Under the pieces are notes generated by a model. It was not told the DNA's origin, made no database searches, and worked only from the letters and a program-made list of their open reading frames with translations. Shown piece after piece: positions 7,110 through 60,118 of a stretch of DNA of 64,000 nt (position 1 is its first letter; the number at the start of each line of letters is the position of its first letter). This stretch comes from Halobacteria archaeon (GTDB taxonomy: Archaea; Methanobacteriota_B; Thermococci; Methanofastidiosales; NM3). A program made the position numbers and the translations under genes. Where the stretch lies: assembly GCA_036733165.1 (NCBI GenBank), contig DAINBB010000004.1, forward strand, positions 7,198-71,197, given 5' to 3'.

Positions 7110-7481
7110 TTATTCGATATTGAATCTCTTGGCTGCCTTGATGATGCCGAAAATGACAAGCATGATCACAAGGAATGTGAGAACTGCACCAAAGAAATGG
7201 CCTATCCTGAAAGGACCGAGCATGATAGCCTCCCAGCTTGAGGCATCGGGCACGACGTATTCCAGAAGCGGCATGATAAAATCATTTACGAGCGCTTGCA
7301 CAAGAGCCCCAAGATACATTGCTATGATAAAGGCCACGGCAAGACCCAGCAGCTTGTACTTCCTAATGAATTCCATAAACTCTTCCTGTATGCCCTTGGG
7401 CCCAGCTGGGGGAGCTGGCGGCTTGGGTGTCAGAAGTTCTCTAATCTGTTTTAATTCTTCAAGCATTTCCTCTTCTCGCAT
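7110..7481 (-). CDS. mscL: Large-conductance mechanosensitive channel MscL-like
   Basis: 'EFMEFIRKYKLLGLAVAFIIAMYLGALVQALVNDFIMPLL' aligns with the MscL TM1 core ('[40 protein letters not shown]'). Second TM plus short tail. Unusual N-terminal charged/Pro-rich 35 aa. Confidence 0.7.
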   Translation of the reverse strand: MREEEMLEELKQIRELLTPKPPAPPAGPKGIQEEFMEFIRKYKLLGLAVAFIIAMYLGALVQALVNDFIMPLLEYVVPDASSWEAIMLGPFRIGHFFGAVLTFLVIMLVIFGIIKAAKRFNIE

Positions 7482-30800: not shown

Positions 30801-31065
30801 TATTTTTCAATCCTCAACAATAATTTTTCTAGTTAATATAGATCGATTTTGTTAATTCATAGGGATGACTATCTTTTGGTGATGGGCCTTGGAAATTATC
30901 AATAACAGATGATAATATTACATATGATATGCATCATGAGAATATATATTATTTATTTAACATGGATGTATTATCCATCCGCCTTACATGTACGGGAGAG
31001 ACTATAAGTTGCTCCAAATCAATCACTTCGTAGAAAAACAATTTTTAGAACTTAGGAGGAATAAT

Positions 31066-31719
31066 ATGTCAGAAAAAGAGCTTTTCGCAAAGCTTAACAC
31101 AGCCGTCGTCAAGGGAGACAACGTCGGTATCCAGGGCATCTGCAAAGAGGTCCTGGACAGTGGGGTCGACCCCTACCGCGCCCTCATCGAAGGCTGTGCC
31201 GAGGGAATGAGGGTCGTCTCGGACAAGTACGACAAGAAAGAGATGTTCGTACCTCAGATCCTTCTCTCGTCAAGGGCCATGTACGCCGCGATGGACGTGC
31301 TCAAGCCCCATATAGAGACGGACGAGACCACCGTCACGGGCAAGATCGTCCTCGGCACCGTGGAGGGCGACATCCACGACATAGGGAAAAACATCGTCAA
31401 GCTGCTGCTCGAGGTGGCCGGATTCGAGGTCTTCGACCTCGGAAGGAGCGTACCGCTCCAGAGCTTCGTCGAGACGGCGAGGGAGAAGAGCGCGGACATC
31501 ATAGGGATGTCGGCCCTGATGTCGACGTCCATGCTCGGCATGCCCGAAGTCATAGAGATGCTCAAGAACGCGGGGATACGCGACCAGGTCAAGGTCATGA
31601 TAGGCGGGGCCCCGATAACCGAGCAGTACAAGGACAAGATAGGGGCCGACGGATTCGCCACCAACGGTCCGGGGGCGATAAAGCTGGCAGAGGGCCTGAT
31701 GAAGGAGAAGGGGGCGTGA
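31066..31719 (+). CDS. Methyltransferase cognate corrinoid protein (MtaC/MtbC/MtsB-like, B12-binding)
   Basis: B12-binding 'D-x-H-x-x-G' motif 'VEGDIHDIGKN', 'GMSALMS', N-terminal helical cap. RBS 'aggagga' before the ATG at 31066. The gene is visibly GC-richer (~60%) than its flanks. Confidence 0.85.
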   Translation: MSEKELFAKLNTAVVKGDNVGIQGICKEVLDSGVDPYRALIEGCAEGMRVVSDKYDKKEMFVPQILLSSRAMYAAMDVLKPHIETDETTVTGKIVLGTVEGDIHDIGKNIVKLLLEVAGFEVFDLGRSVPLQSFVETAREKSADIIGMSALMSTSMLGMPEVIEMLKNAGIRDQVKVMIGGAPITEQYKDKIGADGFATNGPGAIKLAEGLMKEKGA

Positions 31720-31722
31720 AGT

Positions 31723-32778
31723 ATGGAGGTATCCCAGAGATGGCTCAGCTTCCTCAGGGGCGAGGAGGTCGACAGACCGCCGGTCTTTCCTTTATCACAG
31801 GGGCACTGTGCCAAGATCATGGGCGCGCCCAATCTCGGTGACTACTATACAAAACCAAAGTTCAATGTAGAGGCGCAGATTATAGCACGAGAGATGTATG
31901 GCTATGACCAGCCACCAACTTTCATAGAGCCAGGATATGGGTGCGAATGTTGGGGGGGCAAGGTCCTACAACCATACAATCCAAAGATGGGGGCTCCGGT
32001 ACCTATTAGGCCCGCCTGTCTGACACCAGAAGAGTTGGAGAAGGTCGACATACCAGACCCAAGGACAGCAAGTTGGATGCCAGAGTATAGGGAAATGATG
32101 AGACTGGCAATTGAGAAGAATCAGAAACCATACCCCATCATACCTGGAGGCTTCATTTCAACGACAGCGCCGATGTTAGTCCCAATGGAGACCTTTATGA
32201 TATGGTTGATGGAAGCACCAGACCTAGCCCACAAGGCGCTTTCAAAAACGGCGGAATTCGGAATATCCCTGGTCGAGTCCTTTGTAGAGGACTTTGGCAA
32301 CGATACATGGTATCCATTTGAAGGCACGCCGACCGACTCCAATGTGTTGATAGATCCAAACATGTTCGCTGAATTCCCCTTGAGATATGCCAAAAGGCTA
32401 AATGAGAAAATAGTGGACATGGGCCTGTCCATATGGATACACTGGTGCTCAGACCATAGTGGCAACATGAAGGCGGGACATGTGCATAGCATGCCTGTTG
32501 GGCCGGAAGGATTCATAAATATGGGTCCAGAGGTTCCAATGGATGTCCAGGCTGAAAAGCTGGGAGATAAATACAGACTAGTCGGAAATATCAATCCGCC
32601 TCTCATTATGTCTGCCGAGTTCGATGAATGGCAAGACATATGCCTCAAGAATATCGAGGAAGGCACAAAGGCAAAGATGGGATACGCGCTTGGCGTGGGT
32701 TGCGAACTTCCACCGCCGGCCCCTCCGTCAAATGTGTTCGGCATGGTCAAGGCAGCAGAGGAATATGGAAGACGTTGA
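31723..32778 (+). CDS. Methylcobamide:CoM methyltransferase-like protein (MtaA/MtbA/MtsA family, URO-D fold)
   Basis: 'RWLSFLRGEEVDRPPVFPL' aligns with the MtaA N-terminus 'RLLAALKGEPVDKVPVCSV'. Zn ligands conserved ('IHWCSDH', 'GVGCELPPP'). 3 nt after the corrinoid gene stop. Confidence 0.8.
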   Translation: MEVSQRWLSFLRGEEVDRPPVFPLSQGHCAKIMGAPNLGDYYTKPKFNVEAQIIAREMYGYDQPPTFIEPGYGCECWGGKVLQPYNPKMGAPVPIRPACLTPEELEKVDIPDPRTASWMPEYREMMRLAIEKNQKPYPIIPGGFISTTAPMLVPMETFMIWLMEAPDLAHKALSKTAEFGISLVESFVEDFGNDTWYPFEGTPTDSNVLIDPNMFAEFPLRYAKRLNEKIVDMGLSIWIHWCSDHSGNMKAGHVHSMPVGPEGFINMGPEVPMDVQAEKLGDKYRLVGNINPPLIMSAEFDEWQDICLKNIEEGTKAKMGYALGVGCELPPPAPPSNVFGMVKAAEEYGRR

Positions 32779-33279: not shown

Positions 33280-33651
33280 CTAAAAAAATAGATAGGTCAA
33301 GGGACCTTTACGAGGTTTGTATATGCCAGCACGTTCTCCAAAGGCGTCCTTGGGGACAGACCACAGCCCGGCGCCAGCACCCTCTACACCGTCATCTATG
33401 CATTGCTGCGCCTCCGCCTCAACAGTAAGACAAAATGGCACTCTGACGCTCCCTATACCTGCATGTTCCCATGCGCCATAGGCAAGGTCTGCCATCTTAT
33501 TGGCGTTCTTGTGGGCATCCGGCCAATATGACCCCGTCTTTTCCATGAGAGATACAGTACCAGTCTGGAGGGGACAACTGCAGGAGACCCTATCTGTTTC
33601 CTTCCCTTCGAGGGTTCTGATATATCTTTCCTTGGGTGATAGTTTATCCAT
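33280..33651 (-). pseudogene. Truncated N-terminal fragment of a canonical MtaA/MtbA-type methylcobamide:CoM methyltransferase
   Basis: 'LSPKERYIRTLEGKETDRVSCSCPLQTGTVSLMEKTGSYWPDAHKNANKMADLAYGAWEHAGIGSVRVPFCLTVEAEA' is collinear with M. barkeri MtaA residues ~5-100 ('LKTRLLAALKGEPVDKVPVCSVTQTGIVELMD...WPEAH...VRLPYCLTVLVEA'). The ORF stops after 123 aa, and there is no room for the remaining ~220 aa. Confidence 0.6.
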
Positions 33652-46561: not shown

Positions 46562-47059
46562 TTGAGTAAGCTTCTTTCCTCCGTAAGATTAAATAAATCG
46601 ACCGGGACAATAAGAGGTATGGAGGTCGAGGGCAAGGAAGACTACTCATTGGAGATGGAAGGCATGCAGGTAAACATCAGGAACGGCGAGAAAAAGAGCA
46701 TATGCCCGCACATTGCCATCGTGCTCGAGCAACACGGCATAGTCTCCATCCCCGTCGTCGATGATGTCACGATAAAGAAGATGATCATGGAAGAGAAGAG
46801 GGGGGCCCTACCCATGAAACTGCCCGAAGACTTCTACGACCTCGTGAGACATAGTATCGACAGAACGGACGATGAGAAGAAGAGGAAGTTGATGATGGCA
46901 TTGGCAAAGGACCTGCTGAAGGAGAGGGTGGAGAAGATATTCAAGCTATGCCTGAAGGACAAGACACCTAAGGCGGAGCTGCTGTCCTCCGAGATGACAC
47001 TACTTCTTAAACTGTCAATGTCAATAAAAGAATACGAGAAAGATACCATAGGTGTGTGA
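46562..47059 (+). CDS. GINS subunit-like protein (Gins51/Gins23), putative
   Basis: Small helical protein whose stop overlaps the mcm start by 8 nt, the conserved archaeal gins-mcm arrangement. Sequence support is weak. Confidence 0.4.
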   Translation: MSKLLSSVRLNKSTGTIRGMEVEGKEDYSLEMEGMQVNIRNGEKKSICPHIAIVLEQHGIVSIPVVDDVTIKKMIMEEKRGALPMKLPEDFYDLVRHSIDRTDDEKKRKLMMALAKDLLKERVEKIFKLCLKDKTPKAELLSSEMTLLLKLSMSIKEYEKDTIGV

Positions 47060-49112
47060 CCATATGATAGAGGACTACGACAGCATTGTCACTGGATTCA
47101 GGGGCTTCATCGACACTTACCCAGATGTGGCATATCCCAAATATAAGATGGCCATAGAGGAGATGTCACTGGAGGAAAAGAAAAGCTTGGAGATCGACTG
47201 CGACGACCTGATAGGTTATGACCAGGACCTCTATCTGAAGTTGGTAGAAGACCCCATGGGTGTCTTGCCCATAGTGGAGGAAATCCTGCATGACAACATG
47301 CCAAACGTGCCGGCTCACAGGCTCCATGTCCGTTTCCGCAATCTCGATGCAACGATGTGCAGGGGCATCAGGGACATAAGGGCGGACGACATGCACAAAC
47401 TGGTACAGATAACTGCCATTGTCGGCAGGGCCTCTGAAGTCAAACCAGAACTTACCGAGGCGGTCTTCGAATGTGAGAGATGCGGAGAGATCATCTTCAT
47501 CAGGCAGGATTCCAACGACTTCAAGAAACCGATTGCGTGTATCAATCCCACCTGCGGGAAGACGGGGCCTTTCAAGCTTTTGGAGGACCAGTCCACATTC
47601 ATTGACTGGCAGATGTTGAAGGTCCAGGAAAGACCTGAATCACTTAGGGGCGGACGAATGCCCCAACACATCAATTGCTTTGTTAGGGACGATATCGTGG
47701 ACAAGGCCCAGGCTGGTTCCAGGGTCACCCTCACCGGCATTCTCAAGACGGTCCAGGACAGTCAGTTCAGGGTAAAGAAGACAACATTCTCCAAGTATCT
47801 GGATGTTAATGCCATCGATGTGCTGGAGAAGGATGTTGACGATACGGTGATAACGGATGAAGATGAGCAGAACATCATAGAGCTCGCGAACGACTCAAAT
47901 GTGATACCTATGATAACCGGATCGATAGCTCCAGCGATATACGGTCTCAACGATGTCAAGGAGGCAATCGCACTCCAATTGTTCTCCGGTGTGGTCAGGG
48001 AGCTACCGGATGGTACCAGATTAAGGGGTGACTCGAACATATTGCTGGTGGGTGACCCAGGTGTGGCAAAATCGCAGATCCTCCAGTATGTGGCCAGACT
48101 CGCGCCGAGAAGCGTCTACACCTCCGGAAAGGGCACCTCAACCGCAGGTTTAACTGCCGCAGTTGTAAAAGACGAAACTACGGGGGGCTGGGCCTTAGAG
48201 GCTGGCGCATTGGTCCTCGCTGACGGTGGGATGGCCTGTATAGACGAGATTGACAAGATGAGCAATGACGACAGATCATCAGTTCACGAGGCGATGGAAC
48301 AGCAGACCATCAGCATTGCAAAGGCGGGTATTGTCGCCACGCTTAACGCAAGGTCCTCGATACTGGCCGCGGCAAATCCAAAGTTGGGAAGATTCGACAA
48401 TTATAAGGGTGAGTTGGAACAAATTGATCTTCCTCCCTCCCTGCTCTCAAGATTCGACCTCATCTTCATCATGAAGGACATCCCCAACAACACAGAGGAT
48501 GAGAGGATAGCGGCCCATATACTCAAATCACACAGGGGATTGAGCGAAAAGGTCATGCCCAAGATAGATTCAGAGATGATGGTGAAGTTCATATCCTATG
48601 CAAAAAAGAAGGTAGAACCCGAACTCAGCGACGAAGCCGAGAAAAAGCTACTAGAGTTCTATATCAACTTAAGGAGGAGAGGCCAGGAAAGTGGGGCCGT
48701 CCCGATAACTGCCAGACAGCTCGAGGCGCTCATACGTCTCTCCGAGGCAAGGGCGAGGATGAAGCTATCGGACATCGTGACGGAGGAGGATGCGGATGCC
48801 ACCATAGCCCTCTACACCAGCGTCATCGAGAAGGTGATGATAGACAAGGAATCCGGCGAGATGGATGTCGATATGCTTATGACGGGAAAATCATCATCAC
48901 AGAGACACAAGATGATAGCCGTATTTGAGATAATCCATAACATAGAGAAGAACTATGACGAGGGCGCCCCATTTGACGAGATCGTCAAGACCTCCAAGGA
49001 TAGGGGCATCAACAGGGAATTCGTAGTTCGCGCCGTTGAGGAACTGACAAGGAACGGCGAGATATTCGAACCGAGACCCGGGTACTTGAAGACCGTGCAA
49101 CTGAACTATTGA
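47052..49112 (+). CDS. mcm: Replicative helicase MCM
   Basis: Zn finger 'CERCGE...CINPTCGK', Walker A 'GDPGVAKSQ', Walker B 'CIDEIDKM', arginine finger 'SRFDLIF'. No intein. Confidence 0.95.
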   Translation: MCDHMIEDYDSIVTGFRGFIDTYPDVAYPKYKMAIEEMSLEEKKSLEIDCDDLIGYDQDLYLKLVEDPMGVLPIVEEILHDNMPNVPAHRLHVRFRNLDATMCRGIRDIRADDMHKLVQITAIVGRASEVKPELTEAVFECERCGEIIFIRQDSNDFKKPIACINPTCGKTGPFKLLEDQSTFIDWQMLKVQERPESLRGGRMPQHINCFVRDDIVDKAQAGSRVTLTGILKTVQDSQFRVKKTTFSKYLDVNAIDVLEKDVDDTVITDEDEQNIIELANDSNVIPMITGSIAPAIYGLNDVKEAIALQLFSGVVRELPDGTRLRGDSNILLVGDPGVAKSQILQYVARLAPRSVYTSGKGTSTAGLTAAVVKDETTGGWALEAGALVLADGGMACIDEIDKMSNDDRSSVHEAMEQQTISIAKAGIVATLNARSSILAAANPKLGRFDNYKGELEQIDLPPSLLSRFDLIFIMKDIPNNTEDERIAAHILKSHRGLSEKVMPKIDSEMMVKFISYAKKKVEPELSDEAEKKLLEFYINLRRRGQESGAVPITARQLEALIRLSEARARMKLSDIVTEEDADATIALYTSVIEKVMIDKESGEMDVDMLMTGKSSSQRHKMIAVFEIIHNIEKNYDEGAPFDEIVKTSKDRGINREFVVRAVEELTRNGEIFEPRPGYLKTVQLNY

Positions 49113-49708
49113 GATGAAATGGCCTTTCTAACAACATCGACAAAGGAATCGGGGCCCACGCCAGGGGATTCCACCCCCTCCCTTTCATAGAATCGTGATA
49201 TCCTATCATGCAACCGTGACAGTTCTGTGTTCCTAAGCTCATCCTCAAGTTCGAACAGTTTGTCCTCAGGATAAAAAAAGAAGTCACCCGTAAACTTCAC
49301 TGACCTTATCAGGTTGCCCTTGTGGATCACCCTTGCGCACAGGAGTCCCCCGGGGAACTTCTTCTCTGCATAATCATCATCCATCCTGTCAAGTTCCTTC
49401 TCCTTTCGGAACGGATGGCGTCTGACATTTCCGCAATGGAGACATGTGGTGGACACCATGCCGGACCTTGTCCTGACCCTTGACGTCCTTCCCGGGACCA
49501 GGGGGGTGTTGCATTTCTTGCAGAAGAGGCCCTTTTGTTCTGGAGCGAGCTTAACCTTGTGCTTGCGGATCATGTCCCTGGCTATCTGGACATATCGCCT
49601 GGACCTCTCCGGCCGCTCATCCAGATTGTCCAATGAAAGTTCAAGCATCCTCTCCACATGTCTTGATGCTATCCTCTTTCTCTGGTGCTTCACCCGCTTC
49701 CATTTCAT
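49106..49708 (-). CDS. rnp4: RNase P protein subunit Rpp21 (Rnp4) fused in frame to a lipoate-protein-ligase C-terminal-domain-like (LplB-like) domain
   Basis: N-terminal ~115 aa: 'KRIASRHVERMLELS...RRYVQIARDMIRKHKVKL' plus zinc ribbon 'CKKCNTPL...CLHCGN' = Rpr2/Rpp21. C-terminal ~85 aa: 'GGLLCARVIHKGNLIRSVKFTGDFFFYPEDKLFELEDEL' resembles the LplA C-terminal domain (GDFF motif). Confidence 0.6.
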   Translation of the reverse strand: MKWKRVKHQRKRIASRHVERMLELSLDNLDERPERSRRYVQIARDMIRKHKVKLAPEQKGLFCKKCNTPLVPGRTSRVRTRSGMVSTTCLHCGNVRRHPFRKEKELDRMDDDYAEKKFPGGLLCARVIHKGNLIRSVKFTGDFFFYPEDKLFELEDELRNTELSRLHDRISRFYEREGVESPGVGPDSFVDVVRKAISSQ

Positions 49709-49749: not shown

Positions 49750-50361
49750 TCACAAGGAGTATATGACATGGTTCACCACAGACCACGCCATCAGTTCCTC
49801 ATCGAATATTGAATATCTTGGATAATCCATGTCTACACTGAAGTCCCCGTGGGGGAACCCGCCTATTATTATCACCGAATTGTCCGCAGGCCTGTATTGT
49901 CCGCCCTGAAAATGCATTAGCTTCACGTCCATTCCCTCAGAGATGTCGTCAATCAGATCTGTCAGCCCCATTTCCTTGATCTTCAGGAGCACTGTTTCCT
50001 CATGGCATATCTTTCCGGTCTCAAAGAGCTTCTCCATCAGCCCGACGAATCTGTTGTAGGAACGTGGAACCCTCCATTCCGGAGACATCTCTATCACCTG
50101 GTCGTTCCTGGTGTGGATATAGAACTCAAGCCCCCCCGTCTTGTTCAATGGGGACTCCAGGGCATTTAGAAGGGATACGTGAACAATGTCCGGCCTTCCC
50201 CTGCGATAGGCATCATCAAGGCCCTTCATGGCGGAGTGGTGGAAATTGCTGTCAAGGAGCACAACGTCCTTGTCGCCAAATGCATTTCTGAACTGGCGTC
50301 GGCGCCTTATCTCCTCCGGGACAGGTTCAAGCTCGCTTTCGGCAAGGACTATCTTCAACAT
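49750..50361 (-). CDS. nep1: Ribosomal RNA small-subunit methyltransferase Nep1 (Emg1, SPOUT)
   Basis: 'GRPDIVHVSLLNALESPLNKTGGLEFYIHTRNDQVIEMSPEWRVPRSYNRFVGLMEKL'. Confidence 0.85.
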   Translation of the reverse strand: MLKIVLAESELEPVPEEIRRRRQFRNAFGDKDVVLLDSNFHHSAMKGLDDAYRRGRPDIVHVSLLNALESPLNKTGGLEFYIHTRNDQVIEMSPEWRVPRSYNRFVGLMEKLFETGKICHEETVLLKIKEMGLTDLIDDISEGMDVKLMHFQGGQYRPADNSVIIIGGFPHGDFSVDMDYPRYSIFDEELMAWSVVNHVIYSL

Positions 50362-53954: not shown

Positions 53955-54028
53955 GCCCTCGTAGTCTAGCTGGATATGACGTCAGCCTGCGGAGCTGAAG
54001 ATCCCGAGTTCGAATCTCGGCGGGGGCG
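53955..54028 (+). tRNA. tRNA-Arg (anticodon GCG)
   Basis: GCCCTCG acceptor stem, D loop with GG, anticodon stem TCAGC/GCTGA with loop CUGCGGA, T arm CCGAG-TTCGAAT-CTCGG, discriminator G. CCA is encoded (to 54031). Confidence 0.85.
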
Positions 54029-58233: not shown

Positions 58234-59250
58234 CTATATGTGCCTCAGAAAGTCCACATCGCCAGCCAGTATGTGTGAGACGGTGCCGTCATCCTCCTCG
58301 AGTATCAAGGCGCCTGTATCGTCGATGTCCACTACCTTCCCCCTCTTCTCCACTCCAAGGAACGATACCCGCACGCGATTGCCGATGGTGTTCGATATCT
58401 GTTTGGAGTATTCCATTATGGTCGAAAACTCTTTTCTCTCAAAGTGGGTGTACTCATCTTTGAACTTGTTCAGGATACTTGCCATGAGCATGTTCCTGTC
58501 GGTCTCTTTTCCAATTATCTCACTGATCGATATGAAGCTCGAATCCTTTGGAAGTTGATTGTTAACGTTTATCCCTATGCCTATGACCACATAGTGCATG
58601 AGATCGATATCCGAGGACACGAGGATGCCTATGCCACAAAGCTTCTTGCCCCCGTAGAAAATGTCGTTTGGCCACTTCATGCTCGGTTCTATGCCATAAA
58701 GCTCGTTCATGGCCTTTGCAACGGCGTTTGCAACGACGAAGTTCAGGATTGGGGCCATTGAGGGAACGCACCTTGGCCTCATGATGAAGGAGAACCACAG
58801 TCCCCCTCTCGGAGATTGCCACTCGCGTCCCATGCGTCCCCTTCCGGCAGTCTGTATCTCTGAGACTATCAATGTTCTCTCCGGAAATCCGTCCAGGGCA
58901 TGTTTTCTTGCCTGAAGATTGGTCGAATCTGTAGAATCGTGATGAAAGATAGGTTTGAAGTTCGTCTCGAGGACTATGAACTCGGGAACTATTATGTCTG
59001 GAAATGATACGAGCCTATATCCCTTGTTCGTTTTCGAATATATCTTGAAACCGTCCTCTTTTAGTTGATTTACCTTTTTAGAGACGGCCTGTCTGGTGAT
59101 GCCGAGCTTCTTGGCTATGTACTCTCCTGATACGAAGGTATCGCGATTATCGATCAGGAATGTCAGGATGTCCTTGGCCATTAATAAAGAAGAATAGAAG
59201 AACATTATAAAAATATTGCTATTTAAATTAAAATTGTCAAAAAGGGGCAT
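58234..59250 (-). CDS. birA: Biotin--protein ligase / repressor BirA
   Basis: N-terminal HTH 'ISGEYIAKKLGITRQAVSKKV'. 'QTAGRGRMGREWQSPRGGLWFS' biotin-binding loop. Confidence 0.85.
   Translation of the reverse strand: MPLFDNFNLNSNIFIMFFYSSLLMAKDILTFLIDNRDTFVSGEYIAKKLGITRQAVSKKVNQLKEDGFKIYSKTNKGYRLVSFPDIIVPEFIVLETNFKPIFHHDSTDSTNLQARKHALDGFPERTLIVSEIQTAGRGRMGREWQSPRGGLWFSFIMRPRCVPSMAPILNFVVANAVAKAMNELYGIEPSMKWPNDIFYGGKKLCGIGILVSSDIDLMHYVVIGIGINVNNQLPKDSSFISISEIIGKETDRNMLMASILNKFKDEYTHFERKEFSTIMEYSKQISNTIGNRVRVSFLGVEKRGKVVDIDDTGALILEEDDGTVSHILAGDVDFLRHI

Positions 59251-60044: not shown

Positions 60045-60118
<74 letters not shown>

Follow-up and report, generated by a model that had tools for sequence, protein, structure and literature searches.

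In-frame fusion of the RNase P protein Rpp21 with an LplB-type lipoate-protein ligase domain in Methanofastidiosales

Introduction

In the split lipoate-protein ligase of Thermoplasma, formed by LplA and LplB, the latter is needed for the formation of lipoyl-AMP by LplA. The usual form of LplB is a free polypeptide of ~90 aa, and in most of the archaeal standalone-LplB loci recovered here the gene of the catalytic LplA (~250 aa) lies immediately adjacent (36 loci). The archaeal protein Rpp21 (also Rnp4 or RNase P protein component 4), known from Pyrococcus (PH1601, PF1613) and from M. jannaschii (6K0A chain G), combines a helical pair with a C4 zinc ribbon; in its canonical form it has ~95-130 aa and ends soon after the ribbon. 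Here we describe a gene in which both families are joined in a single reading frame. It lies in a stretch of 64,000 nucleotides (positions 7,198 to 71,197 of contig DAINBB010000004.1, assembly GCA_036733165.1, lineage NM3), which we refer to as the window and to whose first letter all coordinates are counted.

Results

The open reading frame (ORF) of the fusion occupies positions 49106-49708 of the minus strand, with its ATG at 49706-49708 and its TAG at 49106-49108, and encodes 200 aa. An earlier note, made from the letters of this DNA, had proposed that Rpp21 is fused in frame to an LplB-type domain at this place; the sequence that it quoted is found at these coordinates, and profile, Protein Data Bank (PDB) sequence and fold evidence agree with the proposal. 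The homology to Rpp21 ends at residue ~108 and that to LplB begins at residue ~113, leaving a junction of ~4 residues (~109-112, positions 49373-49384, minus strand, placed by alignment) that holds Met109.

The N-terminal half, residues 1-108 (49385-49708, minus strand), is predicted to be the Rpp21 of the organism, on the basis of Pfam, NCBIfam, PDB and Foldseek matches. Pfam Rpr2 (PF04032) recognises residues 29-93 with E=1e-14 and 54.9 bits against a gathering score of 29.3, and the NCBIfam model of RNase P component 4 (NF003045) covers residues 4-108 (profile positions 8-115 of 121, E=1e-23). The score of the second model, 83.6 bits, is below its equivalog cut-off of 162, which could be explained by a divergent lineage. 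In a search of PDB sequences, residues 7-108 match the Pyrococcus Rpp21 structures 2k3r and 1x0t with E~1e-15. The AlphaFold2 (AF2) model of this domain shows helices at 2-27 and 33-50 and strands at 75-99, and superposes in Foldseek on 2zae_B with a target-normalised template modelling score (TM-score) of 0.87 and a root mean square deviation (rmsd) of 1.5 Å. The basic helices and the C4 zinc ribbon that had been read from the letters are supported by the Pfam, NCBIfam and 2zae_B matches; the cysteines of the ribbon, Cys63, Cys66, Cys89 and Cys92 (49433-49522, minus strand), were placed by homologue alignments and are invariant in both of them (6 and 10 fusion homologues).

Residues ~113-198 (49115-49372, minus strand) form a domain with a predicted β3-α3 fold, which NCBIfam, PDB and Foldseek matches together with the structural model identify as being of LplB type. 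The likeness to Pfam Lip_prot_lig_C (PF10437), also claimed beforehand, is borderline in Pfam itself, where residues 114-165 score 24.4 bits (E=2.9e-5) against a gathering score of 24 and the NM3 orthologue, with 23.3, falls just below it. The NCBIfam LplB model (NF053749) aligns with residues 115-197 over profile positions 2-86 of 86 with E=3e-14, at 52.9 bits (54.6 for the isolated domain), which is below the cut-off of 65. Residues 119-194 match the LplB of Thermoplasma acidophilum (3r07_C, residues 15-89 of 91) in phmmer with E=5e-13, and the AF2 model of the domain superposes on the same chain in Foldseek with a target-normalised TM-score of 0.87, an rmsd of 1.5 Å and 35% identity. Foldseek also matches it to the C-terminal domains of the LplA proteins of Listeria, Enterococcus and Mycoplasma. 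The model of the whole protein (mean predicted local distance difference test, pLDDT, 83.5; predicted TM-score, pTM, 0.46) presents two long helices, the zinc ribbon, a short helix and the β3-α3 domain in this order, as two well-folded domains whose mutual orientation is not confident.

The motifs of the family are retained in the fused domain. In an alignment of 10 fused C-terminal domains with 20 standalone LplBs, the signature GDFFFYPE (residues 141-148, 49265-49288, minus strand) has invariant G, D, F, F and P, with Y and E conserved in at least 90% of the 30 sequences, and K-x-x-GGL, GDFFxYPE, LE and ESPG are present in 10 out of 10 fused domains. The net charge of the fused domains is -5 to +2, mostly acidic and within the range of standalone LplBs; since this is the charge of ordinary LplBs, a shift toward an RNA-binding surface is not indicated.

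The fusion is conserved well beyond the window. Eight contigs encode an identical 200-aa product; they derive from at least four assemblies that are independent of each other (Logan SRR5007228, JGI 3300025702, ENA ERZ795048 and ENA ERZ27257475). The window is overlapped, too, by a JGI contig of 113.7 kb. Full-length homologues with a per-domain identity of 28-75% comprise ~11 protein clusters and nine further loci. Five of these homologues, of 198-203 aa and 54-67% identity, carry both Pfam domains each, and a HMMER search of 1.84e9 cluster representatives gave five more full-length clusters of 199-206 aa with E≤1e-56, after which the E-values drop sharply to ~1e-26. Every other match among the best 150 of that search has a single domain, being either an ordinary Rpp21 (~100-130 aa) or a standalone LplB (~75-125 aa), so that among these 150 both domains are spanned only by the fusion family. 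Species-representative genomes hold four full-length loci (L003-L006, 46-58% identity), and JGI metagenomes three more (L093-L095) besides a truncated copy (L098). Even at ~28-46% identity, homologues have a single frame of 198-211 aa without interruption. Wherever a cluster member has a name, it is Candidatus Methanofastidiosa or -ia archaeon; L006 belongs to NM3, a lineage that in GTDB falls under Methanofastidiosales.

Purifying selection clearly acts on both halves. In the comparison of L004 with L006, the sole pair close enough, the Rpp21 half has a ratio of non-synonymous to synonymous substitution rates (dN/dS) of 0.084 (19 synonymous and 6 non-synonymous changes) and the LplB half one of 0.144 (11 and 6), numbers of changes that are small.

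The gene order around the fusion is conserved as well. Upstream, at a distance of 41 nt and on the same strand, lies the gene of an EMG1/Nep1 methyltransferase (49750-50361, minus strand; Pfam EMG1, 191 bits), while the gene of the MCM helicase (47052-49112, plus strand) converges on the fusion and overlaps its 3' end by 7 nt. This arrangement, EMG1 and then the fusion facing MCM, is common to all the fusion loci, namely L001, L003-L006, L091 and L093-L095. A metagenome scan for an unfused Rpp21 in the EMG1/MCM synteny returned only further fusions, together with distant unfused Rpp21 genes elsewhere; one of the latter, P0013, has an unrelated context of ribosomal-protein genes.

We also looked for a catalytic partner of the LplB-type domain. 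The earlier remark that no LplA gene is nearby proved right over the whole window: neither a motif scan nor tblastn with 36 archaeal LplA queries detected one in the 64 kb, and the same two approaches detected none within 10 kb of the fusion in L001-L006. In L042 a complete lplB-lplA-lipS-lipS-gcvH cluster is present. With its LplA, LipS1/S2-like and GcvH proteins as tblastn queries no such gene was obtained in the window or in L001-L006 (10 kb flanks); in the tblastn with L042 queries the fused LplB region was the sole match. The window does contain a BirA-like gene at 58234-59181 (minus strand), ~8.5 kb upstream of the fusion and on the same strand. Although a member of the LplA superfamily, it was rejected as an LplA candidate, as its 315 aa show the canonical helix-turn-helix (HTH_11), BPL_LplA_LipB and BPL_C arrangement of a BirA-type biotin-protein ligase/repressor.

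Published tables place a ligase elsewhere in such genomes. Methanofastidiosales genomes are listed as positive for lipoate-protein ligase, mostly with GcvH and/or E2, and as lacking LipA, LipB and LipM (Tanabe 2023, S3, PMC10332631). JAFGGT01 sp016930445, whose genome contains the fusion locus L003, is given as Lpl=1, E2=1 and GcvH=1, and NM3 sp004212155 as Lpl=1 and E2=1 (S3, PMC10332631). In NM3 GCA_004212155 the sole PF10437 match is RXIG01000001.1_162 (151669-152304), with the hidden Markov model (HMM) on residues 115-164, and a catalytic-only LplA is encoded on another contig (RXIG01000019.1, 70806-71573) (S5, PMC10332631). The gene RXIG01000001.1_162 is exactly the L006 fusion gene. Hence an orphan LplA and lipoylatable proteins coexist with the fusion in at least one genome, for which no other LplB is recorded.

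Standalone LplBs of fusion-bearing genomes were sought with the C-terminal domain as query, which gave six matches, all unnamed, and with a profile of 30 sequences, which gave 1555 matches, none labelled Methanofastidiosa among the 120 listed. The standalone LplBs nearest to the fused domain (P0158-P0163) have 83-95 aa and 41-49% identity and are on low-GC (~32-33%) archaeal contigs (L089:5951-6226 and L090:3387-3668), next to genes of aIF5B/IF-2, SAMP2 and HcyBio and with no LplA within the contig. At the LplB loci of Bathyarchaeia L019, L025-L027, L031, L035, L037 and L055 tblastn gave no match to the 36 LplA queries, and in Anaerolineae and most other archaeal loci LplA is directly adjacent to LplB. 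Some LplBs of Bathyarchaeia have LipM-type neighbours (Tanabe 2023 tables, PMC10332631). The Methanofastidiosum genomes are listed with LipS1 and without LipS2, with the 3' end of LipS1 overlapped by a 90-aa LplB (PMC10332631); this LipS1-only arrangement is an unusual partial LipS system. There LplA and LplB are on different contigs (S5, PMC10332631).

Each partner has also been found joined to other proteins. The protein QMUK01000040.1_9 (L073:894-1682, plus strand; 262 aa), from 'Thermococci archaeon B88_G9' (Hadarchaeota B88-G9 in GTDB), consists of a class I S-adenosylmethionine (SAM) methyltransferase (Methyltransf_11, 64 bits) and a C-terminal LplB (PF10437, 39 bits). It had been considered as a distant Rpp21 fusion, given a tblastn span over residues 10-197, and was discarded as such because its N-terminal part is the SAM methyltransferase. 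This protein is the sole LplB match of its genome, whose LplA is on another contig (S5, PMC10332631). Metagenomic Rpp21 proteins bear other C-terminal additions, namely an isochorismatase (P0014), DUF1122 (P0018), a CRS1/YhbY (CRM) RNA-binding domain (P0124) and a HATPase_c fragment (P0141), and P0061 has a tail of ~100 aa without a family match; these five, known from one 50%-identity cluster representative apiece, are putative fusions from gene calls. Both partners thus seem to be tolerant of fusion, as the methyltransferase-LplB protein and the other additions to Rpp21 exist.

As to the rest of the window, the sole Rfam matches at gathering score are three tRNA genes (870-943, minus; 53955-54028, plus; 60045-60118, minus strand), and no RNase P RNA gene was matched there. 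At 30988-32778 (plus strand) a corrinoid protein (B12-binding_2 and B12-binding) is followed by a methyltransferase of the URO-D family, with a second URO-D fragment at ~33280-33651 (minus strand); the corrinoid and URO-D genes fit the methyl-reducing methanogenesis ascribed to Methanofastidiosa.

Discussion

The joining of Rpp21 to an LplB-type domain is a genuine fusion, vertically inherited and confined to one clade, Methanofastidiosales including NM3. Its unusual point is that it is fixed and kept under selection in a clade within which this protein differs by more than 50%. We think it probable, albeit with some reserve, that the polypeptide is bifunctional, keeping two independent ancestral functions, and that its C-terminal domain serves an unlinked LplA. 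In this proposal the N-terminal domain would act as Rpp21, expected to form a pair with Rpp29 at the specificity domain of the RNase P RNA, and the C-terminal domain would bind in trans to a catalytic-only LplA whose gene lies in another part of the genome. The pair would then enable the ATP-dependent formation of lipoyl- or octanoyl-AMP, prior to transfer to GcvH or to the lipoyl domains of E2. The role of the C-terminal domain is modelled on the split ligases LplA-LplB of Thermoplasma and Lpl-N/Lpl-C of Thermococcus. From the sequence we infer that both domains may be active when fused, and that their joining does not imply a functional tie between RNase P and lipoylation, of which we see no sign. 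The fusion probably arose opportunistically, since lplB is unlinked from lplA in this region of the archaeal tree and was free to fuse with an adjoining gene, and since the methyltransferase-LplB protein and the other C-terminal cargoes of Rpp21 offer similar cases.

Several observations weigh against this proposal. The LplB scores are marginal with respect to the curated thresholds (24.4 and 23.3 against 24, and 52.9 against 65), and the C-terminal domain diverges faster, having 28-64% identity to the protein of the window where the Rpp21 half has 44-75%. The junction of ~4 residues bears on the steric fit of LplA binding together with RNase P assembly. The incompleteness of metagenome-assembled genomes weakens the argument that NM3 has no other LplB. 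Moreover, Methanofastidiosum has a standalone LplB of 90 aa beside LipS1, with LplA elsewhere (S5, PMC10332631); therefore the order has an alternative LplB, and the search of the window's genome covered 64 kb of it.

The earlier note had left room for two less remarkable origins of the ORF. An indel from sequencing or assembly might have erased a stop codon between adjacent rnp4 and lplB genes, an idea that we regard as next to impossible: the same ORF appears unchanged in at least four independent assemblies, diverged homologues hold a single frame with both halves under purifying selection, and the conserved homologues together with this selection exclude a lost stop codon. The option of a true fusion, which the note had also kept, is the one that stands, as the relatives aligned have a single ORF and no stop between two genes. 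The sole frameshifted copy (L091) breaks the fusion instead of making it. On this contig of 1.6 kb (JGI Ga0436860_080764; ccaggggcc at 1320-1350) the halves are called as two ORFs of 136 and 73 aa, which, like the presence of Met109 ('MDDDY') at the junction of the window copy, might speak for separate products, with LplB being freed from the fused gene by internal initiation of translation or by proteolytic cleavage. The split, nevertheless, is due to one missing G in a run of G on a single low-coverage contig, and adding one G brings back the consensus frame FPGGLVCA; it is probably a homopolymer error, although it could be a real frameshift or a private mutation. An internal lplB start at Met109, as the note had suggested, did not withstand comparison as a conserved feature, because this methionine is unique to the window copy and in five out of six loci (L001, L003-L006) the junction has no in-frame ATG, GTG or TTG across 30 codons. 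Upstream of Met109 there is only a weak AGGA partial match of 4 nt and no Shine-Dalgarno sequence of GGAGG type. We consider separate products improbable.

A more serious competitor of the bifunctional protein, which we nonetheless judge unlikely, is co-option, in which the LplB fold would no longer serve lipoylation but would have become a structural, dimerisation or regulatory module of RNase P, or a tether to some partner. In favour of such a role are the tightness of the fusion and its retention across an order-level clade, the borderline or sub-threshold model scores, the faster divergence of the C-terminal domain and the presence, in the sister genus Methanofastidiosum, of a standalone LplB beside LipS1 that might supply the ligase function. 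Set against them are the retention of every family-invariant LplB motif and a charge that is acidic as in ordinary LplBs, not basic as in an RNA-binding module. In addition, the fusion is the only LplB listed in the NM3 genome, which has an orphan catalytic LplA, in the AF2 model the domains are not packed against each other with confidence (pTM 0.46), and Rpp21 is fused to other unrelated domains too, suggesting opportunistic fusions. Still further from what we expect, and in our view highly improbable, is a physical or regulatory link of RNase P to lipoylation, either through a new RNase P role of the LplB-fold module or by recruiting LplA; if true, tRNA maturation would thereby be tied to the lipoylation of proteins and to one-carbon metabolism.

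Full-text searches that combined Rpp21 or RNase P with lipoate or with LplB gave nothing, and the fusion seems not to have been described as such; it constitutes a new domain architecture of two well-known families. NCBI names the proteins inconsistently as 'ribonuclease P protein component 4', 'lipoate protein ligase C-terminal domain-containing protein' or 'hypothetical protein', and the published survey tabulates the NM3 copy as a plain LplB at the cut-off score, with the Rpp21 half (first 110 residues) unmentioned (Tanabe 2023, S5, PMC10332631). Archaeal genomes with a seemingly orphan LplA may thus hide LplB as a domain of an unrelated protein, and lipoylation surveys would miss copies scoring slightly below that of NM3. 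For RNase P, the fusion provides a natural Rpp21 with a folded C-terminal addition of ~10 kDa across an order, which suggests that the C-terminus of Rpp21 tolerates cargo in the holoenzyme. The likeliest reading, two housekeeping functions opportunistically fused, opens by itself no long-standing question.

Compared with the known systems, the fusion has the helical pair and the C4 zinc ribbon in common with the archaeal Rpp21 proteins (30-34% identity and target-normalised TM-scores of 0.7-0.87 to the solved structures), but where these end it adds a folded C-terminal domain of ~88 residues. This domain resembles Ta0513 of T. acidophilum (3R07 chain C) and Lpl-C of T. kodakarensis in its fold and signature motifs, while belonging to an RNase P subunit, as its C-terminal half, instead of being a free polypeptide. 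In the majority of archaeal loci examined lplB adjoins lplA, in contrast to the window, but the Lpl-C gene of T. kodakarensis is likewise not adjacent to lplA, Lpl-N and Lpl-C forming no cluster (Tanabe 2023, PMC10332631). A covalently attached LplB-fold domain is also the condition of the single-chain LplA of E. coli type, Lpl(AB), and of the circularly permuted Lpl(BA); in both the partner is the catalytic LplA domain, whereas the partner here is functionally unrelated. A parallel in this respect is the methyltransferase-LplB protein of L073, in which, as in the NM3 case, the only listed LplB of a genome is fused to an unrelated protein, although there the partner is a methyltransferase and the instance is a single one.

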